Assembly: GCA_947367845.1 (NCBI GenBank)
Contig: CANBES010000006.1
Coordinates: 1,603-65,602, forward strand
Length of the DNA: 64,000 nt
DNA from: an uncultured Clostridium sp.
Lineage (GTDB): Bacteria > Bacillota > Clostridia > TANB77 > CAG-508
Direction: 5' to 3'
Shown here: positions 1-27,436 of the stretch, piece after piece
Numbering within the stretch: position 1 is the stretch's first letter
How the letters are laid out: each line of letters opens with the position of its first letter
Translations under genes and position numbers: made by a program
Notes under the pieces: model-generated
What the model was told of the DNA's origin: nothing
The model's database searches: none
What the model saw: the letters and a program-made list of their open reading frames with translations, nothing else

Positions 1-206
1 TTTAGCCTATCTCGATACATTCTATTAAAGTCATTTCTCTTTTTTAATGATGTTCCACTAATTCCTTCATCTGCATATATTTCAATTAGTTTCCAGTCCT
101 TATGTTGGCTTACATATTCTTCAAAATACAACCTTTGATTTTCCAAAGAATTTTTTTGATCTTCATGGTCAGTAGATACACGACAGTATGCAACAACTCG
201 CTTCAT
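1..206 (-). CDS. Large serine recombinase, N-terminal resolvase domain only (continues past the left edge)
   Basis: Minus-strand ATG at 206. Translation MKRVVAYCRVSTDHEDQKNSLENQRLYFEEYVSQHKDWKLIEIYADEGISGTS has the YxRVST catalytic-serine motif of resolvase-type recombinases. The ORF runs off the window. Confidence 0.8.
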   Translation of the reverse strand, partial: MKRVVAYCRVSTDHEDQKNSLENQRLYFEEYVSQHKDWKLIEIYADEGISGTSLKKRNDFNRMYRDRL

Positions 207-218
207 ACTCTCTTATAC

Positions 219-942
219 CTACCTTTCCCTTAATTTTTTCAATTTCTTTGCTATTTTAATTCTTTCAGCCATCTGTTTTTTATATTCTTCATTTTCCCAA
301 AGTGCTTTCATTTTTTCACTTCGTGATTTGTTTGCTTTTCTTCTTTTTTCTTCCTTTTTAGCTGTATCAACTTCTTTCTCTATTCTATTTCTTATATTAG
401 TAGCTTCTTTTTCATTGACTTGATATTTTCCATCAACAAAGTCATAACCATATATTTTTTCTCCAATGTTTCTATTGTTTTTTACTTTTTTCTGTATTTT
501 TTCAAATTCTTTTTTTCCTATTATAGCTCCGTGATAAATTTTCTCTTTTTGCTTTACTTCTCATTTCATTTTCGCTTTGAATCATAAAAACAATTATTTG
601 AATTTGTGTCCTTCCTACTGCATCTGCTGTACTAATTTTTTCGTCCAAGAAAATTACTTCTATTTGTTTTTGATTAAAAAATTTTATAAAAAAGTCTACC
701 TTATAATTAGTTGCTTGACAAAATTGCCTTACATTTTTTATTAAAATAATATCAATATTTTCTTCTAAAGCTTCATTTAATAATTTCTCAAAACTTATAC
801 ATTGTTTATTTTTTGTATAGTCTATAAATTTTTTTACTATTTTCCATTCTCCATAATCTTTAATATACTCTTGTATTTGCTTTTCAAAATCTTTTATACT
901 CTTTTCATTATTATATAATCCATAAGTTACTACTTTTTTCAT
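219..942 (-). pseudogene. Small resolvase-like recombinase homologue, frame interrupted by one extra C that creates an in-frame CGG
   Basis: ORF 502..942 (MKKVVTYGLYNNEKS.., degenerate Ser motif) stops 9 codons after TCA CGG. Skipping the C (fwd G531) reads ..ENLS-GAIIGKKEFEKIQ..GEKIYGYDFVDGKYQVNEKEATNIRNRIEKE.. to TAG at 219-221. The lengths are 411 + 1 + 312 nt. Confidence 0.55.
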
Positions 943-1047
943 CCTTGCTTGTCCTTTCCTACTTTCTGTGCTAAAATAGTAGCAGAAAGTATTTTAATAT
1001 TTTCCGAACTATCTATATTAGTTTCACGGCTATTGGATAGTTCTTTT

Positions 1048-1206
1048 TTATTTTTCAATATCATTATGTATTGCTGTTTTCTTTATAATTGTTGCTTTGT
1101 TATCTTTTGTTTTCCTTAAAAGTACCTCTTTTTGCTCATTTTCTGATAATTGTTCTGGATTACCTACTCTGCAATATGCAAAAACTCTCATTTCTGTTTT
1201 AGGCAT
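1048..1206 (-). CDS. 52-aa ORF resembling a resolvase N-terminus (possible remnant)
   Basis: MPKTEMRVFAYCRVGNPEQLSENEQ.. mimics the RVxxYxRVSTxxQ start of serine recombinases but has G in place of the catalytic S. The ATG overlaps the upstream stop (ATGA). Confidence 0.3.
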   Translation of the reverse strand: MPKTEMRVFAYCRVGNPEQLSENEQKEVLLRKTKDNKATIIKKTAIHNDIEK

Positions 1207-1340
1207 CAAGCTACCCTCCTTTCAAAATCTTTGTCTATCTCTATAATTGCTAATTTCATTTCTTCTTCTGTTAGTATTCCTTGTTCATATAGGTCTTTTA
1301 TAATTCCTATCTCTATGCACTTTTTAGCAATTTCTCGCAT
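1206..1340 (-). CDS. 44-aa helical protein upstream of the recombinase genes
   Basis: MREIAKKCIEIGIIKDLYEQGILTEEEMKLAIIEIDKDFERRVA. Its stop overlaps the next ATG. It is below the ORF-track size cutoff. Confidence 0.35.
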   Translation of the reverse strand: MREIAKKCIEIGIIKDLYEQGILTEEEMKLAIIEIDKDFERRVA

Positions 1341-1458
1341 ACAATTCCTCCAATTTAAAAAGGAAGTTTTGTATTGCCTATAAATAGCATACTCAACTTC
1401 CTAAATCTTTTCCAAGGTACAAAATTTACCTTGCCTATATTTTTATAGATTTGACACA

Positions 1459-2214
1459 TTATTTTCTATCTTTCACATTTTCTGCTTGTTTTTCAACTTC
1501 ATCTGGAGAATATAAATCAATAAGTGTTAAGATATATTTTCCAAATTCCTCGTTTGAAATTTCCAAGTTCCCTGTATGTTTTAGATATTCTCTTGCTACC
1601 ATTCCATAAGATGCAATTTGATTTCTCGTAACAAATTCTGTTTTTTCTTCTATTCCCTCTCTATGTGGCACTTCTTTTTTGATTTTCTCTAAATCTATTC
1701 CTAATGAAATAATAAGAGCTTTATCTACTTTTCTCAATTCTCCAATATCTAAAGCTCCTATATAATATTTTAATCTTGATTTGTCTATTGCTCTGATTTG
1801 TTCTGTCAAAACAAGTGAATTTTGTTTTAGTCTATCTTTATACCCTTTTATATACACATGAGTTGGTATAATCGATTTTGAATTTACTTTACTTGTTATT
1901 GGTGCAATTATAACAGTTGGACTATGCTCATTTCCTATATTGTTTTGCAATATTACTACTGGTCTTACTCCTGTTTGTTCACTTCCTACATAAGTTTCGT
2001 CTAAAGCTGCATAATATAAATCTCCTCTTTTAATTTCCATTTTATTTCTATTCTCCTTTTTTTCTTTATAATTTTTCAAATATTCCATTTGTTCTTGATC
2101 TTCCATTATTTTTTCTTCTTCTGTTTTACTCATACTCGCATATAGAATCATTAAATATGTAAATATTGTGATAAGTATAAGTAGTATTAAAAATATAATT
2201 AGTAAAATATTCAT
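1459..2214 (-). CDS. PemK/MazF-family endoribonuclease toxin domain with an N-terminal TM extension and a ~75-aa C-terminal extension
   Basis: Core RGDLYYAALDETYVGSEQTGVRPVVILQNNIGNEHSPTVIIAPITSKV..LVLTEQIRAIDKSRL matches the MazF/PemK pattern. An internal ATG at 2040 has a good SD (AAGGAGA). The upstream in-frame 58 aa contain a hydrophobic helix, MNILLIIFLILLILITIFTYLMILY. Confidence 0.65.
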   Translation of the reverse strand: MNILLIIFLILLILITIFTYLMILYASMSKTEEEKIMEDQEQMEYLKNYKEKKENRNKMEIKRGDLYYAALDETYVGSEQTGVRPVVILQNNIGNEHSPTVIIAPITSKVNSKSIIPTHVYIKGYKDRLKQNSLVLTEQIRAIDKSRLKYYIGALDIGELRKVDKALIISLGIDLEKIKKEVPHREGIEEKTEFVTRNQIASYGMVAREYLKHTGNLEISNEEFGKYILTLIDLYSPDEVEKQAENVKDRK

Positions 2215-2560
2215 TGTTTTATTTCTCCTTTTTTATTCAAAAAGGCTACCTTATAGATTAGATAGCCTTTTACAATTACTTTCTATCTTCTCCTAAAATT
2301 CATTAAACGGCAATTAGCTAAATTGCTCCACAGGACTTCCACCTACCTGCTTTCAACAGATTTGTTCTCAATGCGTGGGACGGTTTTATCTCGCTCGTGC
2401 TATGACTAAACAAGTGTATCATTATACCTACTACTTGTCCTCGCCTTATAAGTGGCTATCTTATATTTAAGTAAAGTGATTTGTGAGATTACTTTTTAAC
2501 TAGCTCGAATAGTAGGAATGTATTTAATGAATTGCTATTTAATTTTCAAAGTTCATGTGG

Positions 2561-2601
2561 AATAAAAATTCCTCTCATTTCTCCTGTGAAAAAATGAGAG
2601 G
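2561..2601 (-). terminator. Rho-independent terminator after the sigma-like gene
   Basis: Minus strand reads CCTCTCATT-loop-AATGAGAGG followed by AATTTTTATT. Confidence 0.55.
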
Positions 2602-2618
2602 TTTGTAGGATTAAATTT

Positions 2619-3128
2619 TTAAATTTTTATAAATTTTTTTAATTTTTCTAAAATTCTATCTCTTTTATCTTGAATTGTAGTGTAATGTTTGCCTACTATT
2701 GCAGCATATTCTCGCAATGTTTTATTTTCAAAAAATAATGCCTTTATTAGTTTATATTCTTCTTCAGTTAGTTGTAATAAAGCTATTCTTAATTTTTCTA
2801 TTTCAATTTTTCTTTCAAAAGTAGCTTCTATATTATCTATTGGATTTGAAATTATATTTTTTAATGCTACTCCATTTTCAGATTCATGATCATAAGAAAT
2901 TAAATTCATTTTTCTTGCAACTCGATCTAAATATTTTTGTCTTTGTTCTTCATACTCTATAATTTCATAATCTTTTTTTGATACTTCTAGTAAAATATCA
3001 TCTAACTTAATAAATTTCTTTTTCTTATATGTACTGTATTTTTTTCGTTTCTCTTTTAGTTCTTTATATGTAATTTCTTCATAAATTCCTTTTTTTAATT
3101 TTATAAAACATTTTGCATTATCTTGCAT
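2619..3128 (-). CDS. Sigma-70 region-4-like / HTH regulator
   Basis: The C-terminus LTEEEYKLIKALFFENKTLREYAAIVGKHYTTIQDKRDRILEKLKKF looks like a sigma r4 HTH. The likely start is ATG 3128 (SD GGAGG 8 nt upstream) rather than the TTG at 3143. Confidence 0.5.
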   Translation of the reverse strand: MQDNAKCFIKLKKGIYEEITYKELKEKRKKYSTYKKKKFIKLDDILLEVSKKDYEIIEYEEQRQKYLDRVARKMNLISYDHESENGVALKNIISNPIDNIEATFERKIEIEKLRIALLQLTEEEYKLIKALFFENKTLREYAAIVGKHYTTIQDKRDRILEKLKKFIKI

Positions 3129-3139
3129 TTCTCTTTCCT

Positions 3140-3169
3140 CCAATCAATTCGTTTTTGTGAATTGATTGG
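3140..3169. promoter_or_regulatory. Perfect 11-bp inverted repeat abutting the SD of the sigma-like gene
   Basis: CCAATCAATTC-gtttttgt-GAATTGATTGG. It could be an operator or a 5' UTR hairpin. Confidence 0.35.
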
Positions 3170-3611
3170 TAGGTGGGCTACGGCAATGTTTTTCTTTTAG
3201 AGCATAAAAAAAATCAAATATACAACGCATAATTGCACATTTGATTTGAAATAGGCACAAATATCTAATATTTACATTTTTTAATGTAAATACTTGTGAA
3301 ATTACTTTTACATTTTTACTTGTACCCCTCCCCATATAAAAAACTCCTTTATAGAATAGTGCCTAAACAAAATTCTTAAAGGAGTTTTGAATAATTAAAA
3401 AATAAATCAATACTATAATCAAAGTCTAAAATATGTACTTGTAATTATCTTGTGTTTTCTCTATATCTTTTGAATCGCCTCCCTTTTAAGACTTTGATTA
3501 AGTTGCTTGCATTATATAGAATTTTACTTTTCTAATGTCAAAAAAGGGGGAATATGGCGAAAAAGGGCGAAAAAAGGCTAAATTTTCTTTTACTATTTTT
3601 TCCATTTTGTA

Positions 3612-3640
3612 TTGTGTTTACATAATTTTTATGGTATAAT
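3612..3640 (+). promoter_or_regulatory. Sigma-A-type promoter for the Spo0A-like gene
   Basis: TTGTGT, 17 nt, TGg-TATAAT (extended -10), about 45 nt upstream of ATG 3684. Confidence 0.4.
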
Positions 3641-3683
3641 GTTATCGAATTTATAATATAGACATTTGTAGGAGGGTTTCCAG

Positions 3684-4403
3684 ATGCAGAAAGTCCTTAT
3701 TGCTAATCCTAATGTTGAGCAAAGAATAAGGCTTTGTCAACAGCTTGCAAATGATAAAAGGTTAGAAGTAATAGAAACAGCTGATGGAAAAACTGCTTTA
3801 GAAAAATATCTTGATATTAAACCTAATGTATTAGTTTTAGATTCTTGCCTAAAAGATATAAATTGTATTGAAATAATTGATAGATTATCTACAAATATTG
3901 CAGATAAGAAAAATAACAACATTATATTAACAGCTCAAAAAGAAGAAAATTTGAACTTGTCTAATGCTGCTAGAATATACAAGGTAATCTATGATGATGA
4001 AAATTTTAATGACTTTTATAGTACAATTAACGAAATGTATCTTTTTGGAGAATATGAAGAATTAACTAACGAGGAACTCGATTTATTATTTTTGACATTA
4101 AAAATTCCTTTAAATTCAAATGGAACTAATTACATAAGAGAAGCTATTTTTGAATGCTACTACTACCCTGACTTACAGAAAAAATTGAAAGATATTTTTA
4201 CTATAATTGGACAAAGACACAACAAGCCTAATTCGGCAATACGATCAAGTTTTAGAACTGCATTAGAACGATTAAATATGTATAGAGATACTATCAACTG
4301 CCCTATTATGCAATATTTTGATATTGAAGAAAATATAACCCCAAAAGATTTTTTAGAAATTGCAGTAATGTATTTACATCTACAAAAAGGAAAGAAGAAA
4401 TAA
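3684..4403 (+). CDS. Spo0A-like orphan regulator (atypical receiver plus Spo0A_C-like DNA-binding domain)
   Basis: The N-terminal receiver fold has D in VLVLDS, but the acidic pocket is replaced (LIANPNVEQ). The C-terminus LKIPLNSNGTNYIREAIFECYYYPDLQKKLKDIFTIIGQRHNKPNSAIRSSFRTALERL parallels the Spo0A effector domain. Confidence 0.65.
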   Translation: MQKVLIANPNVEQRIRLCQQLANDKRLEVIETADGKTALEKYLDIKPNVLVLDSCLKDINCIEIIDRLSTNIADKKNNNIILTAQKEENLNLSNAARIYKVIYDDENFNDFYSTINEMYLFGEYEELTNEELDLLFLTLKIPLNSNGTNYIREAIFECYYYPDLQKKLKDIFTIIGQRHNKPNSAIRSSFRTALERLNMYRDTINCPIMQYFDIEENITPKDFLEIAVMYLHLQKGKKK

Positions 4404-4436
4404 GTTTTGTAAAAAACCTATTCCTTCTTTTTTAGT

Positions 4437-5627
4437 TTATGCGTTTTCTTTTAATTCTTTATACCCTTGCATTATATTGTCTATTTCCATATTGTTTATT
4501 GGCTCTGATACAAATGTATTCAAATTTCTTCCCATTAGATTATATGCTGTTTTCATATATTCATCACTAACATTATCACTTGTAATTATATTGAATATTG
4601 GCACATTATCTTTTAAACTTTCTTTTGATTTCCTCATTATTTCCATACTGTCCATATTGTCTAAATTCATTTTTGCAAAAACCATTTCTGGCTTTGATTC
4701 TATAATTTTATTATATGTTTCTTTTCCGTCTGTTGCTGTGTCTACTAATTCAACATAGTCTAAGCCTTTTATTGTATCTGCTATTTTATTTCTTATTTCC
4801 TCGTTATTATGAGCAATTAGAATTTTTATCTTTTTCATTCTATTCTCCTCTAATTCATACATAAATTCTACTGGATTTTGGTATAGTGCATTTCCTTTTT
4901 TCACATCTACACCATGTTCCGTTTTTATTATATCTCCATTCGCTATTAGCAAAGTATATTTATCTTCCATGTCCTTTTCTTGTCTAAAGTCTGTTTCTCC
5001 TATATTTCCAAAATTTCTAAATACATTTTTAGTTTTCTCAAATTCTGCATCTGTTATTGCAAATTCGTCTTTATTTTTCTCTGCTGTTTCTCGAAGTGGC
5101 ATAAATTTAAAGAATTTCCATTTGCTAATATTATAATTGTTTAGGAATTCTCCTAGCTGCTCCATCTCATTTATGTTTTTCTTGCTAACTACTGTATTTA
5201 TATTGACTTTTAAACTTTTTCCTTTAACATAGTCTAATATAGTTTTAACTTCTTCAAAATGATTTTTGCCTCTTCCTAATTCTTCATTAGTATCATCATT
5301 TATCGTATCTAATGACAATGTCAAAGAATCTAAATAATCTAAAATCTCTCTCATATTTTCATTTTGTGCTAATACCATTCCATTTGTTATTAGCTTGTTT
5401 TTTATACCATTTTCTTGTGATATTTTCAATAGTTCTTTTAAATTTGGATATAGTAGTGCTTCTCCCCCTGTCCAAGTAATGTTGTTTACCCCATCTTTAA
5501 TCAAATTATTTAATATCTCTTTATTTTCTTCATAAGTAAGATCGTTAATACCTAAAAATCTGTGGCAATATTTACAATTTTGATTACATTTTGTTGTAAT
5601 ATTCCAACAAACTCTCTTTTTTTGCAT
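4437..5627 (-). CDS. Viperin-like radical SAM enzyme fused to a C-terminal degenerate receiver domain
   Basis: CNQNCKYC (CX3CX2C) lies near the N-terminus. GGEALLY, LGRGKNHFEEV, KVNINTVVSKKNINE, SKWKFFKFMP and MEDKYTLLIANGDII parallel viperin motifs (GRG..KNH, KINSVINRFN, RWKVFQ, MKDSYLILDEYM). The C-terminal ~120 aa have a REC fold in which DD, D and K are replaced (IAHNNEE, FAKMNLDNMD, VSEP). Start ATG 5627. Confidence 0.7.
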   Translation of the reverse strand: MQKKRVCWNITTKCNQNCKYCHRFLGINDLTYEENKEILNNLIKDGVNNITWTGGEALLYPNLKELLKISQENGIKNKLITNGMVLAQNENMREILDYLDSLTLSLDTINDDTNEELGRGKNHFEEVKTILDYVKGKSLKVNINTVVSKKNINEMEQLGEFLNNYNISKWKFFKFMPLRETAEKNKDEFAITDAEFEKTKNVFRNFGNIGETDFRQEKDMEDKYTLLIANGDIIKTEHGVDVKKGNALYQNPVEFMYELEENRMKKIKILIAHNNEEIRNKIADTIKGLDYVELVDTATDGKETYNKIIESKPEMVFAKMNLDNMDSMEIMRKSKESLKDNVPIFNIITSDNVSDEYMKTAYNLMGRNLNTFVSEPINNMEIDNIMQGYKELKENA

Positions 5628-5731
5628 TTTTAACATCTCTCTTTCTTTGAAATTGATACACAATTATTATATCTTGTAAGAATTTTCCTGTCTATTCTCA
5701 AATATTTAATCAGTATTAAATATTTTTTAAT

Positions 5732-5766
5732 ACAAAAAAAGAATACCCTTTGTTTTAAGGATATTC
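5732..5766 (-). terminator. Rho-independent terminator after lysR
   Basis: Minus strand reads GAATATCCTT-aaaaca-AAGGGTATTC followed by TTTTTTTGT. Confidence 0.55.
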
Positions 5767-5790
5767 TGCCTATTTGCTTATATTCATTTA

Positions 5791-6669
5791 TTACTTATTT
5801 TTTAAGTATTTTTTTATAAATTTCTTATCTACTTGTGTTAGCATATCTTTTATATACACTAAATTTATACTCAATTCTGGCAATTCTATTGGCAATTCAA
5901 CTTCGTATAATTCTCCATTCTCTAATTGTTTCTTGACAGCTTCTTTCATTACATAAGCTATTCCTAGTCCATTCATTACTGCTTCTACTCTTATTTCTGT
6001 TGTATCACATTTCATATTAGGTTTAATTTTTACTTTGTGTTCTTTTAGAATCTTGAATAGATTTTTAGTAGAAATTGTATTGTCAAAATTTAATATATAT
6101 CGTAAATCTTCTAATTCTTTTACATTTTCAATTTTCAATGGCTCTTTTGCAACAAATATATTGTTTACTTTTTTTAATTCTTCAATTACAAACTCATCTG
6201 TTTCTGTTGGTATAACATCTGTTATTACAAAACCAAGTTTGTGATTTTTTAACATCTCAAACATTTCACTTGGATTTGCACCACAAGTTAACTCAATATT
6301 TAAGTTTGGAAAATCATTTTTGGCTTTTTTGATATATTCCATTAAGTAATAATTAGTCAAGTGAGATTGACACCCTAAATTTATAGTACCATTAGCTAAA
6401 TCATTTTTTTCTTTTATTACTTTTTCGGCAAAATCAAAGGAAGAAATACTTTTATTAACCATTTCAAATAATTCTTTTCCCTTTTCTGTTAGCTTTACTC
6501 CATTTTTTTCTCTATAAAATAGTTTCACATCTAATTGATTTTCTAAATTGCTTATCTGTGTACTAATATTAGCTGGAGTCTGATCTAATTTATTTCCTGC
6601 ATCTGCATAGCTTTTAGAACTTGCAACTACACAAAATATCTTATACAAATTATAATTTACATTAGACAT
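5791..6669 (-). CDS. LysR-family transcriptional regulator
   Basis: N-terminal wHTH YKIFCVVASSKSYADAGNKLDQTPANISTQISNLENQLDVKLFYR plus a substrate-binding-type C-terminus. Start ATG 6669 with SD GAGAGGTG. Confidence 0.85.
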   Translation of the reverse strand: MSNVNYNLYKIFCVVASSKSYADAGNKLDQTPANISTQISNLENQLDVKLFYREKNGVKLTEKGKELFEMVNKSISSFDFAEKVIKEKNDLANGTINLGCQSHLTNYYLMEYIKKAKNDFPNLNIELTCGANPSEMFEMLKNHKLGFVITDVIPTETDEFVIEELKKVNNIFVAKEPLKIENVKELEDLRYILNFDNTISTKNLFKILKEHKVKIKPNMKCDTTEIRVEAVMNGLGIAYVMKEAVKKQLENGELYEVELPIELPELSINLVYIKDMLTQVDKKFIKKYLKNK

Positions 6670-6756
6670 AGTAGCACCTCTCAATCGCTATTATTATATC
6701 ATATTATGTAAATAAAGTAAAGAGTTTTGCCCTATTTCTAGGCAAAACTCCATGTA

Positions 6757-7836
6757 TTATTCGTTATTTTGTTTTGAATATAATAAATTTGCTTTTCTAA
6801 TATCAAACTTTGTTCCGATTTTTAGGTTAAGTGTTTTTACAAATTCTATTAGCTGCTCTATATTTTGTTCTGCATTTTCTACTTTCTTTGCTTCTAGCTC
6901 TATAAATATTCCTAAATCTTTAACATCTTGAATATATGCTATAAACTCATCATTTTCGTACATATAGTTTTTATCAATCATATTTAAAAATCTTGTATAA
7001 CCTAATATATTCAAATGTTTTTCTGCTTCTTCTATGCTCATAACTTTTAATACAGACTTTTCTGTACTTATCTCAAATCCATTGCTGTTATGATTTCTTC
7101 TTTTACAAACTATCTTTTTGTCATCTTCATTAACATATCTAATAATTAGTGTGTCTGTAATTCTTCCATTTTTAGGTGCAAATTCATTAGTTTTATCATT
7201 TTTCATATATATATCATCTAATGTAAATTCTTCTATGTATTTGAATCCTTTATCTTCTAAAACTTTAACAATAGTTGATATTTCTTCAAAGACTTCACAA
7301 GTTATTTCTACATCTTTTATAAACTTTGTTTCTCTTACTGCATCTCCAACATATTCTTTTAATTTTTGTTCTAGTAACTCAAAATCACATGAAATGCTAA
7401 TAAAAAATGGGATTTTTATATGTACTACATTTTTGTATATTTTCTTTGCTTTTGAATATATCACATTTTTATTATCATTTATAAAATTGCTTTCTGCTTG
7501 TAAGAGATCTCTATACTTGTCCCCTCTACTATTAAAATCTAATAATTTTATTGCTGTTTCTGGAACTGGTAGCATTTCAGAGAATCTTATAATAGATACA
7601 TTTTTTCCTTTTCTATCTTCTACTCTTATAAAACTAGGATTATCTTTGTACTTATCATAACCTACTTTGTATGAATATAAAGGTGCAAAATATAAATAAT
7701 TTTCTACCCTTAATACAATTCCTACATAAGGTCTTTTTTGCTCTTTATTCCAACTAACATGACTATCAAATTTGCTCAAATAGTCTATGTAATCTTCATT
7801 TACTGTATAAAATTTTAGTGTTTCATTTTCTCCCAT
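6757..7836 (-). CDS. ToxN/AbiQ-family type III toxin fused to a C-terminal CYTH (CyaB-like) domain
   Basis: N-terminus LKFYTVNEDYIDYLSKFDSHVSWNKEQKRPYVGIVLRVENYLYFAPLYSYK..IIRFSEMLPVP fits the ToxN/AbiQ pattern. C-terminus DVEITCEV..DDIYMKN..LIIRYV..IVCKRR..EISTEK..IDKNYMYENDEFIAYIQDVKDLGIFIELEA follows the CYTH strand pattern. The true start is ATG 7836 (SD AAGGAG). The ORF-track N-terminal extension reads into the RNA repeats. Confidence 0.75.
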   Translation of the reverse strand: MGENETLKFYTVNEDYIDYLSKFDSHVSWNKEQKRPYVGIVLRVENYLYFAPLYSYKVGYDKYKDNPSFIRVEDRKGKNVSIIRFSEMLPVPETAIKLLDFNSRGDKYRDLLQAESNFINDNKNVIYSKAKKIYKNVVHIKIPFFISISCDFELLEQKLKEYVGDAVRETKFIKDVEITCEVFEEISTIVKVLEDKGFKYIEEFTLDDIYMKNDKTNEFAPKNGRITDTLIIRYVNEDDKKIVCKRRNHNSNGFEISTEKSVLKVMSIEEAEKHLNILGYTRFLNMIDKNYMYENDEFIAYIQDVKDLGIFIELEAKKVENAEQNIEQLIEFVKTLNLKIGTKFDIRKANLLYSKQNNE

Positions 7837-7848
7837 TTTTGCTCCTTT

Positions 7849-7881
7849 ACAAACAAAACAGGATATATTACTATACCCTGT
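7849..7881 (-). terminator. Hairpin plus U-run between the RNA repeats and the toxin start
   Basis: Minus strand reads ACAGGGTATA-gtaa-TATATCCTGT followed by TTTGTTTGT. It sits where the toxI-toxN attenuating terminator sits. Confidence 0.5.
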
Positions 7882-7890
7882 TTGTATTTT

Positions 7891-8000
7891 AAATCTCCCT
7901 ACTTGAGGCAAGGGTTTTCCTAATGTATAACTCCCTACTTAAGGCAAGGGTTTTCCTAATGTAAATCTCCCCACTTTCGGCAGGGGTTTTTCCGATTAGT
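7891..8000 (-). ncRNA. ToxI-like antitoxin RNA: three tandem ~36-nt repeats
   Basis: Fwd units are 7891-7926 aaatctccctacttgaggcaagggttttcctaatgt, 7927-7962 ataactccctacttaaggcaagggttttcctaatgt, and 7963-8000 (38 nt, diverged). They are contiguous with no spacers and lie directly upstream of the toxN-like gene. Confidence 0.7.
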
Positions 8001-8029
8001 AATCATACGATTACTCTTTTAGTATATTC

Positions 8030-8058
8030 ATTATACACTATTTTTATAACATTGTCAA
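8030..8058 (-). promoter_or_regulatory. Consensus sigma-A promoter driving the repeat-toxin transcript
   Basis: Minus strand reads TTGACA, 17 nt, TATAAT, about 30 nt upstream of the first repeat. Confidence 0.6.
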
Positions 8059-8071
8059 ACAAATTTTTACA

Positions 8072-8449
8072 CTAATTTCTTTTTTCCTTTATTTTATTCA
8101 AATTAGGAAATGTAGCAACAACAATATCTTTTAAGATTTCTAATTCTTCTTCATCACACTTATCAATGATATTTTTCAATATTTCTTTATTGGTGTATTC
8201 TTTATTATTACTCATTCTTTCTCCATATAATAAATAATCAGAAGATTCTTTTAATTTTGAACATATTTGATGCAATGTATGTATGCTACAACTCTTGTCG
8301 CCTTTTTCTAAACTCAAAAGATAATTTTCAGTTCTATCTATCATTTCAGATGCTTTTTCTCTTGTTAATCCTATACTTTCCCTCGCATTTTTTGTTCTTT
8401 CTCCAAAGCCCTTCCAGTCTGTATATTCCTTTTTATCTGTTCTGCTCAT
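8072..8449 (-). CDS. XRE-family HTH protein
   Basis: FGERTKNARESIGLTREKASEMIDRTENYLLSLEKGDKSCSIHTLHQICSKLKESSDYLLYGE is a Cro/C1-type HTH. Confidence 0.7.
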   Translation of the reverse strand: MSRTDKKEYTDWKGFGERTKNARESIGLTREKASEMIDRTENYLLSLEKGDKSCSIHTLHQICSKLKESSDYLLYGERMSNNKEYTNKEILKNIIDKCDEEELEILKDIVVATFPNLNKIKEKRN

Positions 8450-8601
8450 TATTTCGCCCCCATACCAACAATAATTTTTATAATTTCTGTTAGTATTATC
8501 TCATTTTAGGCAAAATAATATTAGAAACCAATAATAATTTATATTATTATTATTAGTCATTTTATAAGCAAATAAAAATACGATTTTAAATCGCTTTGAG
8601 T

Positions 8602-9108
8602 TTACATTTTTTGTTTTATCAATTTCATATACTTATCATTTAATTTTTGTAAATATTCAAGGTTAGCATTAGTAATTTGAGTATTTTTTACTACCCCATC
8701 TTCTTGCATTTCGTCAAAGTATCTATTGTTTAAGTATAATAGTTGTTCAACTATTTCTTGCTCATCAATATTACAAGCTCTCAATGTTGCATATACATAA
8801 ACATTATTTGAAAAATGATTTAATTCTTCCTCTTGAGCATTAGGAAAAGATTTCCTCACTTCTTCCTTTATTTTTATTGTCATTTCTAATCTAAATGGCT
8901 TGTTCAATAATTCGCTATAATCTTTCACAATTTTCTTCTTTTCATTTTCTAAATATTGTTTTGCTTCTAAATATTTTGCAATTACTTTATCTGTTACTAC
9001 TGATTGTTCATATAGTTTATCATATTCAGTTGCATTATCAACAAGTCTATTTAGTTCATTTTCTGCATTAGTAATATCTTGATCTAGCTTTACAATGTCA
9101 TACTTCAT
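8602..9108 (-). CDS. Hypothetical coiled-coil protein
   Basis: Intact ORF. ATG 9108 is preceded by AGGAGG. I recognised no family. Confidence 0.45.
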   Translation of the reverse strand: MKYDIVKLDQDITNAENELNRLVDNATEYDKLYEQSVVTDKVIAKYLEAKQYLENEKKKIVKDYSELLNKPFRLEMTIKIKEEVRKSFPNAQEEELNHFSNNVYVYATLRACNIDEQEIVEQLLYLNNRYFDEMQEDGVVKNTQITNANLEYLQKLNDKYMKLIKQKM

Positions 9109-9206
9109 AAATTTCCTCCTTTCATTTTCAAGGTTGTGCCTTTCAAATTGTAGCATAAAAAAATGATAAAATCAACATACTTACAATAAAAGGAAGGAAT
9201 TTTTTT

Positions 9207-9491
9207 ATGAGCAATAATAGAAATCCATATAATGGGCTAAAAGGCAGATTAAATGTTACTGGCGAAAATATAAATCGTATTAGAGTACAGCAAAATTTAT
9301 CTGCACAAGCATTATCTGATAAACTAATTATGATTGGTTTAGATATTCATAGGCAAGCTATTTACGATATTGAATCTGGAAAAAGAACTGTAGCTGATTA
9401 TGAACTTTGTGCAATAGCAGAAATGTTAGATACAACTTCTGATGCACTACTAAAAGATTTTTCTAAATATGTAAAAAAAGAAAAAAATTAA
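9207..9491 (+). CDS. XRE-family HTH protein
   Basis: IRVQQNLSAQALSDKLIMIGLDIHRQAIYDIESGKRTVADYELCAIAEMLDTTSDALL. Confidence 0.75.
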   Translation: MSNNRNPYNGLKGRLNVTGENINRIRVQQNLSAQALSDKLIMIGLDIHRQAIYDIESGKRTVADYELCAIAEMLDTTSDALLKDFSKYVKKEKN

Positions 9492-9602
9492 AAGAGATTA
9501 CTAAAATTTGAAATAGTAATCTCTTTATTTATACAAATTGTAACTTATTTATAAAGTCTTTTTACTTGATATTCATAATGACTATCTGATTCTAAATTTG
9601 TT

Positions 9603-10493
9603 TTATGCAAATTTTATAGAATCAATAATAAATTTACTAATTTCTTTCCATTCATCTTCTAGTTCTTTGGTGCAATTAAAATTAACTAATCTTAATTTAC
9701 CATCAACTGAAAATGCTATTATATGATTATATATTTCTGTATCTGAAGCCTGTGTTGTAAATTCTATTTCTCCAATTTTATGATTATTTATTTCCCAAAA
9801 GTTTACTTTTACATCTTTTGAATAATTTTTATATGTAGATTCCATTGTTTTTATATATTCTTCTATTTGAGTATTTTTCATTGCTACATCATTCATAACT
9901 AATGCTACATTTATTGTTCCTCTTTCATTTGTATAAACTAATGATGGTGGATTTCCATTTGGATATTTTACATTTAACATTTCATCACTCATTATTTTAA
10001 ATTCGGTTGGTATCTTTAGTGAAAAGCCTCCAAAATCTTCATATTGTGTTTTAATTATATTTCCTTTATTACTTGTAATCTCCAATGTATTTTCTATTTC
10101 ACTAATATACGGATCTTTATTAACAGATATATTTGTTATTGTAATAATACCACTAATTAAGGCAGCTACTATACTTATAACTAATACTATTTTTAAAGAT
10201 TTTGTTTTATCTTTATATTCTGGTATTTTACTTTCCTTATTGTATATTTGATACATCTCTTTTATATCTTTATCATTTTTTACATCTATAAGAATTATTG
10301 GAATTGCAATTATCATAATTAAAATTGAATTGATTATAGTTATATTATTGAGAATTAAATTTTTGCTTGTTGCAAAAACATTTCCTACAACCATTATCAT
10401 TGTAAGCAATATAATAATTATTTCATAAACATAGTAGTCCTTAAATGCTTTGTTTTCTTTTTTCATCATTTTTTTAAATTCACTTTTTTTCAT
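9603..10493 (-). CDS. Membrane protein (3 TM helices plus a soluble C-terminal domain), unknown function
   Basis: Hydrophobic segments VYEIIIILLTMIMVVGNVF, ILIMIIAIPIILI and IVLVISIVAALISGIITI. ATG 10493 follows GGAGG. Confidence 0.5.
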   Translation of the reverse strand: MKKSEFKKMMKKENKAFKDYYVYEIIIILLTMIMVVGNVFATSKNLILNNITIINSILIMIIAIPIILIDVKNDKDIKEMYQIYNKESKIPEYKDKTKSLKIVLVISIVAALISGIITITNISVNKDPYISEIENTLEITSNKGNIIKTQYEDFGGFSLKIPTEFKIMSDEMLNVKYPNGNPPSLVYTNERGTINVALVMNDVAMKNTQIEEYIKTMESTYKNYSKDVKVNFWEINNHKIGEIEFTTQASDTEIYNHIIAFSVDGKLRLVNFNCTKELEDEWKEISKFIIDSIKFA

Positions 10494-11972: not shown

Positions 11973-12887
11973 TTATTTTCCATTTTCAAATTTTAATTTT
12001 TTTTGGCGCTTAGCTTCAAATTTCCAATAACCATGATTACGATTTCGATGTTTTTTTTGAATCTTGTTTTGATTGTTTTTCATGTCTTGTTCAGCATTTA
12101 ATATAATAGCTTTTTTTTCGTTGGAAACAAATTTAAGAAAAACATCATATAGGTACAGCCATCCATCGTATGAGATTTCAGTAAGCGTTGACTCTAATTT
12201 AATTTTTAAAAACTTGCAAATGCGTTTTTGTTGCTCATAAGTAAACAATTTTTTTGTTTTATCTTTGAAAGTATTTCCAGATGCTAAAAATATATATGAC
12301 AGAAAATTTCTATAGTCTATCGCATCCTCAACATCAGCAGATGTTTTTCTTTGAAAGTGAGCAAAACATATTCGTGCATTTGGCACAGGATAAAAATCTG
12401 ATGGTTTAAACTCATAAATCAATTCAGCGGAAAACCAAGGTTTGTATAAAAGAGACCTCAAACTTTCGTTATAAAAGGGCTGTCCAGAATACCTGAGAAA
12501 AGCCTCATACTGCATTATGAAATATATATCTTCAGGAGGATTATCGGCTTCAAATACCTTTTTCACAATATCAGCAGTTATGTTAAATGGAATATTTGCA
12601 CATACTTTATATGGTTCTTTTACTGATATTTTATATTTTAAAAAATCCATCTCTATTATTTGAACTTTTTTAGATTCTTTATACTTTTCAGATAAAGTTT
12701 TCGCTAATTTCGCATCAAACTCTATTGCTATAACTTGCTTGCTTTTTTTTGCAAGTTCAATGGTAATAATTCCTTTTCCAGGACCTATCTCAATTATAAT
12801 ATCGTCGTTACAAATATTACTCTTTGATAACAAAGTCGCTACAAGTTGTTTACTATGTAAATAATTTTGCGAATGTTCTATTCCCAT
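11973..12887 (-). CDS. Erm-family 23S rRNA adenine N6-methyltransferase homologue (304 aa, long basic tail)
   Basis: SQNYL, EIGPGKGIIT (SAM motif) and NIPFNIT (catalytic motif) are collinear with ErmB. There is an extra ~55-aa Lys/Arg-rich C-terminus. The allele is not identified. Confidence 0.75.
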   Translation of the reverse strand: MGIEHSQNYLHSKQLVATLLSKSNICNDDIIIEIGPGKGIITIELAKKSKQVIAIEFDAKLAKTLSEKYKESKKVQIIEMDFLKYKISVKEPYKVCANIPFNITADIVKKVFEADNPPEDIYFIMQYEAFLRYSGQPFYNESLRSLLYKPWFSAELIYEFKPSDFYPVPNARICFAHFQRKTSADVEDAIDYRNFLSYIFLASGNTFKDKTKKLFTYEQQKRICKFLKIKLESTLTEISYDGWLYLYDVFLKFVSNEKKAIILNAEQDMKNNQNKIQKKHRNRNHGYWKFEAKRQKKLKFENGK

Positions 12888-24969: not shown

Positions 24970-25757
24970 TTACCTCTTTCCTTATTTGCTATTTCTAATT
25001 TTGGTGTCTGTACTTGTGGCATTTCTACCATAATACTTTCTTTAGATTTTTGAGCTTTCTTCAATTCCGTTTCAACCTTTAACTCTGCTTCTGCTTCTTT
25101 TAACTTTTTCTTAACAGATTCTTTTTGTGCAGGTTTAGTAACCCCCTCGGAATTGTTTTTGCTCTTCAAGGAAGGCTCTGACGGAGGGTTTTTTTCCGTT
25201 TTTGCTACTTCGGGGTTTTGATTTTCATTTTCCTTTGGTTTAGAAAAAATATCATCTACCATAGCTTCGTTTACTTCTGTTCTTTCCTCTCCTATATCTG
25301 GTGCATTATCTGACAAGTCTTTTTCATTTTTATTAGTAACTTTCTCATTTTCAATTTCTGTTTGAATTGATGCCTTATCATAAGTGCATAAATTATATCT
25401 TTCTACAATTCTATTTACTTGTGGTGCATCTTTTGCTCTTACCATTATATCTACCATACCATCAATATTTTTGTTTTTTCTATTTACCAAAGCACAATAT
25501 AATATTCCATAGCTTCTAGCTTCATGGCAAAAAGTTTTCATATCTTCTTTTTTAATAGAAAAGATTTTTAATTCGTTATCACTTTTTATCATATTATTTA
25601 GTCTAGTCTTGCCTTTTGTCTGCTTTTGGTCTTGTGATATAGTATATAATGCTACAGCAATATTTTTTACAGCTAGTCCACTTATTTTTGCTACTACTAC
25701 TGTTCCATCTAATAGCAATTTAACAGTTTGTTCTGCCGAATCACTTGATATACTCAC
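24966..25757 (-). CDS. PcfB/DUF3801-like protein
   Basis: AEQTVKLLLDGTVVVAKISGLAVKNIAVAL..KGKTRLNNMI..ELKIFSI..FCHEARSYGILYCAL. Its position between the relaxase and the coupling protein is typical. Confidence 0.6.
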   Translation of the reverse strand: MSISSDSAEQTVKLLLDGTVVVAKISGLAVKNIAVALYTISQDQKQTKGKTRLNNMIKSDNELKIFSIKKEDMKTFCHEARSYGILYCALVNRKNKNIDGMVDIMVRAKDAPQVNRIVERYNLCTYDKASIQTEIENEKVTNKNEKDLSDNAPDIGEERTEVNEAMVDDIFSKPKENENQNPEVAKTEKNPPSEPSLKSKNNSEGVTKPAQKESVKKKLKEAEAELKVETELKKAQKSKESIMVEMPQVQTPKLEIANKERGK

Positions 25758-27096
25758 TATTTTCTTTCTCCTTTTCTTTATCTTGATTTCTATTTTCTAC
25801 TTCATCAATAATCTCTTTTATCTTTGGTGTTCTTGTTTCAATACCTTCTATTAACTCAATTTCTTGGTTTAGTTTTTTTATTTCACTCTGAAGCATTTTT
25901 ATTTCTTCATAATTTTTCTGTTTATCACTTTCATTAGCTGCTTTCCTATTTTTCTTCCATAAGCTCTCTACCTTTGCCTTATTTTCTTTTCTATCAAGTA
26001 TAAGTGATTTTTTATATGCTGAAAGCTCTTGAGCAGATTGAATATTTTTTCTACACAAGAGCTTTGCTTCTTTTGAAATTTTATCCATCTTTTTTATTTC
26101 TTCTCTCATTTCTTTTGAATATTGTTTTTTCATCTTCTTATTTTTGGGATACACTTTTAATAAAAAGCAATAATGCAAATATAATGCTTTTATTCCTTTA
26201 GCCTTTTTTCTAGTTTTTAGATTTTGCTTTTTTACCATTCTATATCTTTTAGGTTTTGCTCTTGCTTCTGGAAATGGCTCTCTAATTGCTTGTGTTTCAT
26301 AAATTCTTTTTTCAATATTTTCAATTTTGTAGTCATCTCCAAAGGCTCTTTCTATTCTTATATTCTTTTTGTATGGCTTTTTTCTAACACTTAATTTTCC
26401 ATAACGATTTTCTACTGTGTAATTCATTTTATTTAATATAGATAAAAAGTCTTTATATGAATATGCTTGTCCTATTGCATAGTCAATATCTTCTTTTGCA
26501 ATAGTATGATGATTAGATTTATTTACTTCTGATTTATAAAAATTTCTGTAATCTATTTTACTTTTTGGACACTTCTTTTCTTCTATTACACTCAATTTAT
26601 ATTCTTCACAAAGTCTATCTGATGTTTCTCTCATTAGAGCATAAGTTCTATGATCATCATAATATTTTTTTCCATCTTTAAATGAAACAGAATTCAAACA
26701 GAAGTGATTGTGTATATGTTCTGTATTCAAATGTGTTGTTACAACAACTTCAAATCTATCTCCCCATAATTCATTTGCCAATTTTACACCAATTTCGTGT
26801 GCAATTTCTGGAGTTACTTCGCCTTTTGCAAAAGACTGAAAAGCATGAAAACCTAAAATTCCATTTGTTTTACTATATCTTCTTTTTGTTCTCAACATAT
26901 CTTCATGTATAGAATCTTTATCACAATTTATTGCTGTAACATATAATTGTTCTTCTGTTTTATATGATGCCTTTGCATATTCAATAACATTATGAAGTTC
27001 ACTATATGCTTCCTTACTTGTTTTGCTTGGATTAGTTGTATAATCAATTACATGGTCAAGTCTTTTCTTTATTGCTTTTATTTTTGTTGTAGCCAT
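25741..27096 (-). CDS. Relaxase (MobA/VirD2 family)
   Basis: MATTKIKAIK..HAFQSF..THLNTEHIHNHFCLNSV (HxxxxHxHxH metal motif). Start ATG 27096. Confidence 0.85.
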   Translation of the reverse strand: MATTKIKAIKKRLDHVIDYTTNPSKTSKEAYSELHNVIEYAKASYKTEEQLYVTAINCDKDSIHEDMLRTKRRYSKTNGILGFHAFQSFAKGEVTPEIAHEIGVKLANELWGDRFEVVVTTHLNTEHIHNHFCLNSVSFKDGKKYYDDHRTYALMRETSDRLCEEYKLSVIEEKKCPKSKIDYRNFYKSEVNKSNHHTIAKEDIDYAIGQAYSYKDFLSILNKMNYTVENRYGKLSVRKKPYKKNIRIERAFGDDYKIENIEKRIYETQAIREPFPEARAKPKRYRMVKKQNLKTRKKAKGIKALYLHYCFLLKVYPKNKKMKKQYSKEMREEIKKMDKISKEAKLLCRKNIQSAQELSAYKKSLILDRKENKAKVESLWKKNRKAANESDKQKNYEEIKMLQSEIKKLNQEIELIEGIETRTPKIKEIIDEVENRNQDKEKEKENSEYIK

Positions 27097-27097
27097 T

Positions 27098-27436
27098 CTA
27101 TTTTTCCATATCAAGAAATTCTTTTTTTATATCTTGTGCTAGCTTATTCCATTTTTCATAAACCTTTTTATAAAATGGTGCATCAACTATATCTAAAGCA
27201 TTTGCTTTCCTTGCAATTTGATTTAAGTTTATTCCAACAAGTTTTAATTGTTTTATTATTTCATACATATTTTCTGTTGGTTGCTCTTTTGGTTTGTATC
27301 CCATAATAAGATTTCTTATATACGCACTTTCATTTAATCCTGCTCTCTTCGAATTTTGTTTTAGTGCTTTTAGTTCATCTTCATTTAGCCATACTTGTTT
27401 TTTTATATCTCTTGTTCTCAAATAAAAATTATACAC
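27098..27436 (-). CDS. mobC: MobC-like relaxosome accessory protein
   Basis: RHH-like N-terminus VWLNEDELKALKQNSKRAGLNESAYIRNLIMGY and NLNQIARKAN. Confidence 0.65.
   Translation of the reverse strand: MYNFYLRTRDIKKQVWLNEDELKALKQNSKRAGLNESAYIRNLIMGYKPKEQPTENMYEIIKQLKLVGINLNQIARKANALDIVDAPFYKKVYEKWNKLAQDIKKEFLDMEK

Follow-up and report, generated by a model that had tools for sequence, protein, structure and literature searches.

Viperins are a textbook case of immunity common to bacteria and animals, and the prokaryotic viperins (pVips), reportedly described by Bernheim et al. in 2021, produce 3'-deoxy-3',4'-didehydro-nucleoside triphosphate (ddhNTP) chain terminators with antiphage activity. 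In the Tn916 region, which is relevant here for its layout, tet(M), a convergent orf9 coding for an Xre-type regulator, the sigma-like genes orf7 and orf8 and the recombination genes xis-int lie together. Here we describe a conserved gene pair in which a viperin-like radical S-adenosylmethionine (SAM) domain fused to a pseudo-receiver is encoded convergently with a full-length paralog of Spo0A. The pair lies in a stretch of 64,000 nucleotides from an uncultured Clostridium sp. (NCBI GenBank assembly GCA_947367845.1, contig CANBES010000006.1, positions 1,603 to 65,602 of the forward strand), which we refer to as the window and within which all coordinates are counted.

Two further described systems are close to this locus. 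Ophion, which contains the viperin-related radical SAM protein OpnA, has been experimentally validated as a defence against jumbo phages (bioRxiv 10.1101/2025.09.30.679545). The 0A box recognised by Spo0A is TGTCGAA, a Spo0A site is frequently made up of two such boxes with a 3-bp spacing, and in the phages phi29 and Nf such sites sit between the divergent early and late phage promoters (PMC2731898). An earlier reading of the window, made from its letters and open reading frames (the sequence-only reading), had proposed a viperin controlled by a phosphorylation-independent receiver. Following up this proposal, we tentatively consider a transcription switch of mobile elements, with a nucleotide-handling viperin-like enzyme as its input, to be the best reading of the module.

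Results

A radical SAM enzyme fused to a pseudo-receiver

The radical SAM gene is located on the minus strand at 4437..5627 and encodes 396 amino acids, as judged from its open reading frame, its domains, profile matches and an AlphaFold2 model. The open reading frame as such spans 4437..5663 (408 amino acids from a TTG start); the start at MQKKRV, which yields the 396-residue form, agrees with the starts of the orthologs and with database gene calls. Residues 1 to about 262 (nt 4842-5627) form a viperin-fold radical SAM domain, with Pfam Radical_SAM matching at residues 21-174 (E 2.8e-24), and residues from about 266 to 396 (nt 4440-4832) form a Spo0A-type pseudo-receiver, for which Pfam Response_reg at residues 281-394 scores 26.7 bits, under its gathering cut-off of 30.2. 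The CX3CX2C cluster corresponds to C14/C18/C21 and the SAM-binding GGE motif to G54-G55-E56. Both are kept in every fusion ortholog except P0137 and P0168, two distant full-length fusions (32% and 30% identity) that carry neither the three cysteines nor the GGE motif. The run of motifs that the sequence-only reading had listed was recovered in full, with GRGKNH at residues 118-123, KVNINTVV at 140-147, KWKFFKF at 169-175 and DKYTLL at 222-227 in addition to the cysteines.

The same reading had described the C-terminal receiver as devoid of the acidic pocket, the phospho-Asp and the conserved Lys, and this is what we observe: H273-N274 occupy the position of the DD pair, K319 that of the phospho-Asp and E375 that of the conserved Lys. 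In every ortholog the phospho-acceptor position is K or E and never D. Because the phosphorylation residues are replaced, with K or E as acceptor throughout the orthologs, the domain is a pseudo-receiver. Its similarity to the receiver of genuine Spo0A (30% identity, E 7e-12) exceeds that to the receiver of its partner paralog (E 9e-7). Among close pairs, the radical SAM domain has a ratio of non-synonymous to synonymous substitution rates (dN/dS) of 0.05-0.12 and the receiver one of 0.07-0.20, which argues that both domains are functional in the main clade.

The catalytic domain is viperin-like, outside the curated pVip family

Among the NCBIfam models, viperin_w_prok (NF038283) gave the highest score with 134 bits, followed by MoaA with 86 bits, and the two PADLOC models for pVips matched with 147.6 and 140.8 bits over almost the full model length. 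A sequence search of the PDB returned several chains named viperin or viperin-like among the nine best, followed by BlsE and MoaA. The AlphaFold2 model, which was built on 90 relatives, reached a mean predicted local distance difference test (pLDDT) value of 95.6. In viperins, a C-terminal extension closes the partial barrel of the fold. In a Foldseek comparison of this model with the PDB, the best 18 matches were all viperins (E about 1e-15, approximately 270 aligned columns); target-normalised TM-scores were 0.76-0.82 for viperins, 0.57 for MoaA and at most 0.56 for SPASM maturases. The catalytic domain is thus viperin-like by every comparison available. The sequence-only reading had preferred a viperin-type domain over MoaA, QueE and SPASM enzymes and had named profile and structure comparison as the check; viperins came first in both, and a best match to a non-viperin family was not seen. 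Membership of the MoaA, NirJ or SPASM-maturase families was rejected on the profile scores and the TM-scores.

By the criteria tested here, the protein is nevertheless not a canonical pVip. The curated cut-offs are 180 bits for NF038283, against the 134 bits obtained, and 450 bits for TIGR04278, against 58.8 bits. Ten relatives scored against NF038283 all remained below about 166 bits, and none of the 90 nearest cluster representatives reached its cut-off (about 180 bits; E 1e-52). Because the protein itself falls short of this cut-off and no nearest relative reaches it, it is probably best placed in a broad viperin-like sister family. The earlier pVip assignment therefore stands for the type of the catalytic domain and fails for curated pVip membership.

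Similarities to and differences from the pVips are also apparent at the level of single residues. The comparison was based on positions shared by a T. virens viperin chain and a human viperin sequence, the latter checked only for internal consistency. Of the residues that we take to line the CTP site of viperin (mouse numbering), the equivalents of R194, N222 and K247 are retained, whereas five are replaced (N77 by C, H79 by N, K120 by N, K220 by N and R245 by K). The equivalent of Y302, which we presume to be a catalytic residue of viperin, is Y224 in the window protein; it is kept in stand-alone relatives and missing in the sister subclades L017-L030. The pVip profiles are not matched over their final 14-18 positions and the sequence continues directly into the receiver, so that the C-terminal tail of viperins with R347 is absent and a pseudo-receiver stands in its place. 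The CX3CX2C and GGE motifs, the viperin fold and the link of the nearest stand-alone relatives to nucleotide kinases are shared with the pVips. The window family differs from them not only in its scores, its pocket and its tail, but also in its pairing with a Spo0A paralog, usually together with a LysR gene, and in the existence of cysteine-less pseudoenzyme lineages.

The gene pair is conserved across gut Clostridia

Scanning species-representative genomes gave 34 loci, all of them in metagenome-assembled genomes (MAGs) of uncultured Clostridia with isolate names that indicate mouse and rabbit gut samples. The pair is conserved in at least 20 lineages with identities of 29-100%, and the gene order CYTH (with or without AbiQ), LysR, radical SAM-receiver and convergent Spo0A-like gene is held down to an enzyme identity of 46%. 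In a reciprocal metagenome scan with a six-sequence Spo0A-like set as bait, the radical SAM gene was convergent in eight of nine loci, and several of the loci from this search are human-gut contigs. Whether the two genes are neighbours elsewhere had been raised by the sequence-only reading as a possible point of refutation, and the adjacency was observed from both sides. Exceptions are L019, which has no Spo0A-like gene downstream and is truncated on its upstream side, and L061, which is a short contig.

The surroundings of the pair vary between lineages. A lineage at 47-48% identity resides on tyrosine-integrase elements and contains the LysR and Spo0A_C genes and no CYTH gene. The cysteine-less fusions P0137 and P0168 have kept the Spo0A_C neighbour and have no LysR gene; MmeI or HinfI restriction-modification genes and MazF lie alongside. 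Because these two proteins stay full-length and paired with a Spo0A_C gene, the module appears to have a function that does not need catalysis. In the split loci the receiver is encoded by a separate gene, which argues that it can act in trans; in L020, L021 and L031 it is separated from the radical SAM gene by a gene for a PfkB-family kinase, and L057-L059 and L063 show a split layout with a gap of matching size. In L013 (10170-17158) and L016, the module is located directly upstream of a gene for an ArpU-like regulator (phrog_36), which is followed by genes for the major tail protein, tail chaperone, tape-measure protein and further tail proteins with no head genes between them. This cluster resembles a tailocin or a prophage late operon. 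In L026 the module is chromosomal, among genes for RadA, cyclophilin, an HI0933-like protein and YigZ, and lies 3 kb from a genuine spo0A gene (L026:5725-13208). The CYTH gene of L026 is in two fragments, and this copy may be ancestral or decaying.

Overall, most copies of the module lie on mobile elements; its settings are conjugative elements, with either serine or tyrosine recombinases, a tailocin-like locus and one chromosomal site. Its invariant core is the pair of radical SAM-receiver and Spo0A-like genes, to which LysR is added almost constantly and CYTH, AbiQ or PfkB optionally. The pair is apparently undescribed: a literature search for viperin together with Spo0A returned no papers, a search for viperin and bacterial CYTH proteins returned nothing relevant, and no database names were found for relatives.

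The convergent gene encodes a Spo0A paralog

The partner gene (3684..4403, plus strand) encodes 239 amino acids with a pseudo-receiver and a Spo0A_C domain, as identified by Pfam and NCBIfam models and an ortholog profile, and is convergent with the radical SAM gene. Pfam Spo0A_C scored 25.2 bits, just over the gathering threshold (25 bits). A profile of 17 orthologs searched against the PDB matched the Spo0A C-domain bound to DNA (1LQ1, 4.9e-9), the Spo0A receiver (9phz, 6.2e-9) and 1FC3 (1.7e-8), and from these matches, on which the fold of the protein rests, both domains descend from Spo0A. Its receiver has N8-P9 in place of the DD pair; D53 is present here and replaced by N or H in half of the lineages. 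The sequence-only reading had coupled a receiver without the DD pocket to a Spo0A_C-like domain in this gene and had regarded the receiver of the radical SAM protein as independent of phosphorylation. Both statements fit our data, and independence of phosphorylation applies to the two receivers of the pair alike.

The protein is a paralog of Spo0A and not the Spo0A of the host, since it scores only 32.1 bits with the Spo0A equivalog model TIGR02875 (cut-off 200), its recognition helix is altered (NSAIRSSFRTALE, compared to SRVERAIRHAIE in genuine Spo0A) and the acceptor Asp is lost in half of the lineages. A genuine spo0A gene of the host was seen in L026 (152 bits). The paralog thus shares the two-domain architecture of Spo0A and differs from it in its lost acidic pocket and in its location on mobile elements, alongside the genuine spo0A of the host.

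Tandem 0A-like boxes in a divergent control region

Upstream of the paralog gene, five direct 0A-like boxes follow each other in a phase of approximately 10 bp (3536..3581, plus strand; Tandem Repeats Finder period 10): TGTCAAA (3536), GGGGGAA (3546), TGGCGAA (3555), GGGCGAA (3565) and AGGCTAA (3575). With 7-bp boxes and 3-bp spacers, they share with genuine Spo0A sites the arrangement as direct repeats of a TGNCGAA-like 7-mer. When 15 divergent loci of 10-17 kb were scanned with a regular expression, 11 of them contained a tandem cluster of this kind, each time a single one located ahead of the Spo0A-like gene, compared to 0.56 matches in the shuffled 64-kb window. We propose this region as the binding site of the Spo0A paralog. 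In the whole window the heptamer GGCGAAA occurs eight times, with 1.8 occurrences expected; further copies are located at 8452, 9261, 23377, 27807, 35439 and 36042.

The canonical TGTCGAA box does not occur in the module of this window, and the boxes are specific to the lineages, with GGCGAA, GGTCAA, GGCTAT, TGTCAA, GGGCTAA and GTGTGTA as observed forms. The recognition helix of the paralog likewise differs by lineage. Because boxes and helix vary while genuine Spo0A and its box are constant, each paralog may read its own boxes. Two perfect canonical boxes 3 bp apart (TTCGACA-AAT-TTCGACA) were found in L045, and one canonical box in L024. In L045, which is a cysteine-less locus, about eight GTG(T/C)GTA boxes in a phase of 10-11 bp also lie upstream of the Spo0A-like gene (L045:6139-6468).

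The boxes lie between two divergent transcription signals. The predicted promoter of the paralog gene (3612..3640, plus strand) has an extended -10 element TGgTATAAT (3632-3640). An element ATTGTGTTTACATAAT (3610-3626) is almost invariant in or beside the core promoter of the Spo0A-like genes in loci down to approximately 30% protein identity, among them loci without LysR; in L040 and L045 its orientation is inverted. In the opposite direction, box 1 is the reverse complement of the leftward TTGACA -35 hexamer. The leftward leader (3335..3500, minus strand; folding z-score -3.2) contains two hairpins, of which the first is long, with arms at 3416-3431 and 3485-3500, and the second (3335-3393) resembles a terminator. 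In L040, from a lineage at 47% identity, the arm sequence AATCAAAGTCTAAAA is found again. An attenuator ahead of the downstream gene is conceivable from these hairpins. This gene (2619..3143, minus strand), divergent from the paralog, encodes a small regulator similar to sigma-70 region 4, as indicated by a weak Sigma70_r4 match and by phage sigma-type PHROGs. No substantial gene precedes it in the leftward unit, which continues with MazF and recombinase genes. A gene of the sigma-r4-like or ArpU-like type takes this position in nearly all loci, including those of the cysteine-less fusions.

As in phi29 and Nf (PMC2731898), Spo0A-type boxes are found between divergent promoters of a mobile element; while phi29 reads the phosphorylated Spo0A of its host, the element in the window encodes its own phosphorylation-independent paralog together with a partner enzyme. 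Between the convergent stop codons of the gene pair, the terminator scan detected an 18-bp hairpin with T-runs on both sides (4391..4430), which is likely a bidirectional terminator. An Rfam scan of positions 1-10000 for riboswitches and leaders gave just a sub-threshold chance match on this hairpin.

Candidate regulatory elements upstream of the radical SAM gene

The LysR-type regulator that the sequence-only reading had placed directly upstream of the radical SAM gene in the same orientation is indeed encoded there (5791..6684, minus strand; HTH_1 54.2 bits, LysR substrate-binding domain 73.8 bits), and this position is occupied by LysR in almost all loci with catalytic cysteines. An intrinsic terminator detected after the LysR gene (5740..5767, minus strand) makes the LysR and radical SAM genes separate transcription units. 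The promoter scan assigned to the radical SAM gene a promoter of its own (5666..5723, minus strand), TAGACA-17-TATAAT at 5694-5666 with 11 of 12 matches. Directly upstream of its -35 hexamer lies a 22-bp palindrome, ATATTTAAT-ACTG-ATTAAATAT (5723-5702, minus strand). A related dyad occurs in the upstream regions of orthologs, and the palindrome is a candidate site at which LysR may bind.

Further upstream, an N-terminal AbiQ/ToxN toxin domain is fused to a CYTH domain (6757..7836, minus strand; CYTH at approximately nt 6760-7335). We know of no description of such an AbiQ-CYTH fusion. The profile matches were 146 bits for ToxN_toxin (1.1e-42), 152 bits for AbiQ (4e-45) and 2.2e-8 for CyaB-like proteins. 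A profile of CYTH orthologs matched 2een (4.7e-7), Saci_0718, triphosphate tunnel metalloenzymes and class IV cyclases in the PDB, and the CYTH ortholog of L013 scored above the Pfam gathering cut-off. The N-terminal motif deviates from ExExK and reads ExTxK (EITVKL), or EITCEV in the window. The module is frequently accompanied by a CYTH gene upstream of LysR; in L017, L018 and L030 this gene lies next to an unfused AbiQ gene, and CYTH occurs alone elsewhere and is absent in some relatives. Upstream of the toxin gene, a repeat scan found 2.8 copies of a 36-nt repeat resembling an antiQ/ToxI RNA antitoxin (7890..7990, minus strand), with a perfect consensus promoter at 8058-8030 and a terminator at 7883-7856 between repeats and toxin on the same strand. 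Judged by these features, the AbiQ gene and the repeats have the classic layout of a type III toxin-antitoxin system of the ToxIN type. The antiQ-AbiQ-CYTH unit, the LysR gene and the radical SAM gene are each equipped with a promoter and a terminator of their own.

Stand-alone relatives suggest a nucleotide-type substrate

The closest stand-alone relatives of the radical SAM domain (41-46% identity) are encoded in nucleotide-centred operons. In L047-L049 (P0285), the operon comprises genes for PfkB, a nucleoside monophosphate kinase, Peptidase_U32, a methyltransferase, the radical SAM protein and a dCMP-deaminase-like protein; it adjoins genes for an Apyc1-like metallo-beta-lactamase (MBL) hydrolase and HsdR. 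The operon of L051 (P0139) contains genes for a methyltransferase, a dNK/TMK kinase, the radical SAM protein, a NUDIX protein and an MBL hydrolase, and in another stand-alone relative a HAD hydrolase gene precedes the radical SAM gene. Together with the CYTH profile match and with PfkB in some fusion loci, these operons support a nucleoside or nucleotide as the probable substrate. Because the basic residues are changed and the tail is missing, it is uncertain whether the enzyme carries out the canonical conversion of NTP to ddhNTP.

The window is a composite conjugative element

The window is low in G+C (25-32%), and almost all of its genes are encoded on the minus strand. It is a composite conjugative element, with a VirB4-like protein, a CHAP-domain protein, two MobA/VirD2-type relaxases (25741-27114 and 57269-58654), serine recombinases including a large one at 61295-63376, a tet(M)-like ribosomal protection protein (31035-32957) and an erm-like rRNA methylase (11973-12887). 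In composition it resembles two nested or tandem resistance-carrying conjugative elements. The cargo region of an integrative conjugative element, as assumed in the sequence-only reading, is thus borne out, and so are the defence-like neighbours noted there, since AbiQ, MazF and restriction-modification genes adjoin the module as conjugative-element cargo. In line with the same reading, the 64-kb window contains no nucleotide kinase gene, although pVip genes are frequently linked to one. An identical radical SAM-receiver protein is found in elements inserted at at least five different chromosomal sites of spore-forming hosts, and the element flanks carry the GPR, YtxC and SCIFF genes. Neither a nucleotide search of window positions 3000-7000 against plasmid and phage collections nor a search for relatives in IMG/VR viral contigs returned a match.

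At 1459-2214 on the minus strand, a gene encodes a PemK/MazF toxin domain (amino acids 62-171) with an N-terminal hydrophobic segment and a C-terminal extension of approximately 80 amino acids. Many related elements have conserved it at this place, flanked by the sigma-like gene and the recombinase, and no antitoxin was identified.

Discussion

We suggest that the module may act as a transcription switch of the mobile elements that carry it. The Spo0A paralog would bind the five tandem boxes, which have its own promoter on one side and the leader and divergent promoter of the sigma-like gene on the other, and would serve as a phosphorylation-independent switch for the element. The sigma-like gene would head the regulation and recombination genes of the element, or the tail genes in the tailocin-like relative. 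As input to this switch we envisage the radical SAM-receiver protein, which would be expressed from its own promoter next to LysR and a palindromic operator. The enzyme would act on a nucleoside- or nucleotide-type substrate, and its cysteine-less relatives would merely bind the substrate. The fused receiver might then pair with the receiver of the paralog or with that of the host Spo0A and thereby alter DNA binding. CYTH, AbiQ and the PfkB kinase would be lineage-specific accessories that point to nucleotide chemistry. Such a switch accounts for the Spo0A-derived receivers, the boxes, the constant sigma-like neighbour and the survival of cysteine-less fusions with their partner.

Several points weigh against it. 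Both the binding of the boxes by the paralog and its receiver-receiver interaction are steps that we infer, and the regular-expression scan found no tandem box cluster at the LysR or radical SAM promoters. At the chromosomal locus L026 the module lies among housekeeping genes without a sigma-like gene, and it can thus exist where there is no mobile-element regulator to control. The adjacency to the sigma-like gene may just reflect the usual cargo slot of Tn916-type elements. The low dN/dS of the catalytic domain (0.05-0.12) suggests that the product itself matters and not regulation alone, and AbiQ, MazF, MmeI and HinfI as neighbours suit a defence island equally. Nor do we know of any mobile-element switch that takes its input from a radical SAM enzyme. 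The narrower idea that the module serves only as the element's own regulatory module is weakened by the same chromosomal locus. It may further be speculated, as an unlikely extension of the proposed switch, that viperin-type radical chemistry has been recruited for signalling, with a modified nucleotide that is made or sensed and a pseudo-receiver that flips the paralog, timing the sigma-like late activator of an element or tailocin.

In line with the sequence-only reading, the module could instead be a regulated antiphage defence of the pVip type, in which ddh-nucleotide chain terminators made from NTPs are the costly effector, LysR, the pseudo-receiver and the paralog only keep it silent until infection, and CYTH or PfkB processes or supplies the nucleotide. 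Such a function would suit the first rank of viperins by profile and structure, including the nearly full-length PADLOC pVip match of 147.6 bits, the layout of a pVip with a kinase in the closest stand-alone relatives, the strong purifying selection on the catalytic domain and the conjugative cargo slot next to an AbiQ fused to CYTH and near MazF and restriction-modification systems. Precedents exist in Ophion, which is viperin-related and outside the pVip clade, and in Ambrosia with its receiver-type transcription factors (bioRxiv 10.1101/2025.09.30.679545). We regard defence as a strong rival of the switch, if somewhat less likely. Against it stands that the protein and all 90 nearest relatives lie below the curated cut-off, the equivalents of N77, H79, K120, K220 and R245 are replaced, a receiver occupies the place of the C-terminal tail, the Tyr302 equivalent is missing in sister subclades, cysteine-less lineages persist with their partner gene, and two or three transcription factors for one effector would be unusual. 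That no relatives were found in viral contigs or phage records is neutral in this respect. A cassette that makes a nucleoside analogue, either an antimetabolite for competition or a diffusible signal by which elements communicate, with LysR and the Spo0A paralog sensing and controlling the product, seems quite unlikely to us. Relatives in multi-enzyme nucleoside-modification operons, the CYTH or PfkB proteins that accompany the fusion clade and the general tendency of LysR regulators to sense a pathway metabolite would fit it; the module has, however, no transporter or further tailoring enzyme, CYTH and PfkB are dispensable in several lineages, and the CYTH domain may be non-catalytic, given its deviant motif (ExTxK, or EITCEV in the window).

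A Spo0A mimic and a decoy receiver might also disturb the phosphorelay or regulon of the host, for example to keep it vegetative for transfer or to push it into dormancy. The recognition helix (NSAIRSSFRTALE compared to SRVERAIRHAIE) and the boxes, which are non-canonical and variable between lineages, argue against such a manipulation of sporulation, as does the lack of a canonical TGTCGAA in the module of this window, and the conserved catalytic radical SAM domain and LysR would be left unexplained. We give it a small chance, even though both receivers and the DNA-binding domain are Spo0A-derived, the hosts are spore formers by the GPR, YtxC and SCIFF genes at the element flanks, canonical boxes occur in L045 (two perfect ones) and L024 (one), the module of L026 lies 3 kb from genuine spo0A, and phages read host Spo0A through 0A boxes (PMC2731898). 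Effectively refuted is the assignment of the enzyme to another radical SAM family (MoaA, QueE or a SPASM maturase) with an incidental Spo0A-like neighbour. The generic similarity to MoaA, NirJ and sactipeptide maturases (60-86 bits) that speaks for it is exceeded by the viperin models by about 50-60 bits, TM-scores of 0.76-0.82 for viperins compare to 0.57 for MoaA and at most 0.56 for SPASM enzymes, the protein has no SPASM/twitch cysteine domain and the locus no precursor peptide gene, and the adjacency is conserved in at least 20 lineages.

With the mobile-element switch as our preferred reading, the locus can be compared to the remaining described systems. Tn916 has the same succession of a cargo gene, a convergent regulator, a sigma-like gene and recombination genes at one end of the element; this is a positional analogy only, as tet(M) and the Xre-type Orf9 are unrelated to the window proteins. 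A eukaryotic viperin fusion is known from a preprint, and its partner enzyme may be of the same kind as the CYTH protein described here, which is encoded upstream of LysR in most lineages; the eukaryotic fusion is covalent, whereas CYTH is here a separate protein or fused to AbiQ, carries an ExTxK motif and is dispensable in some lineages. Ophion likewise combines a viperin-related radical SAM protein outside the pVip clade (OpnA) with nucleotide-handling partners in a multi-gene system, but its partners are PHP and PRTase proteins, it has no receiver fusion and no transcription factors, and it occurs in Gammaproteobacteria (bioRxiv 10.1101/2025.09.30.679545). The locus described here combines a viperin-family fold with a fusion and an obligate partner that are both new, together with a predicted cis-element. 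The tandem boxes, the divergent sigma-like gene, the CYTH partner with its fusion to AbiQ and the PfkB variants go beyond what the sequence-only reading had noted.

The gene pair represents a widespread gut-microbiome family that combines the viperin fold and an altered pocket with a fused pseudo-receiver and a dedicated Spo0A-like partner. If its enzymes are active on nucleotides, viperin-type chemistry would extend beyond the curated pVip family into regulated multi-component systems. If the module is a true switch, control of a mobile element by a radical SAM enzyme together with a Spo0A paralog would be without an earlier example known to us, and if the signalling idea holds, mobile elements of spore-forming gut bacteria would possess a decision circuit based on a small molecule. 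The highly mobile elements on which the module resides in MAGs and metagenomes of the mouse gut also contain genes of the tet(M)-like and erm-like types, and relatives occur in the rabbit and human gut. Because the carrier elements hold these resistance genes, any effect of the module on transfer or phage resistance would bear on their spread.

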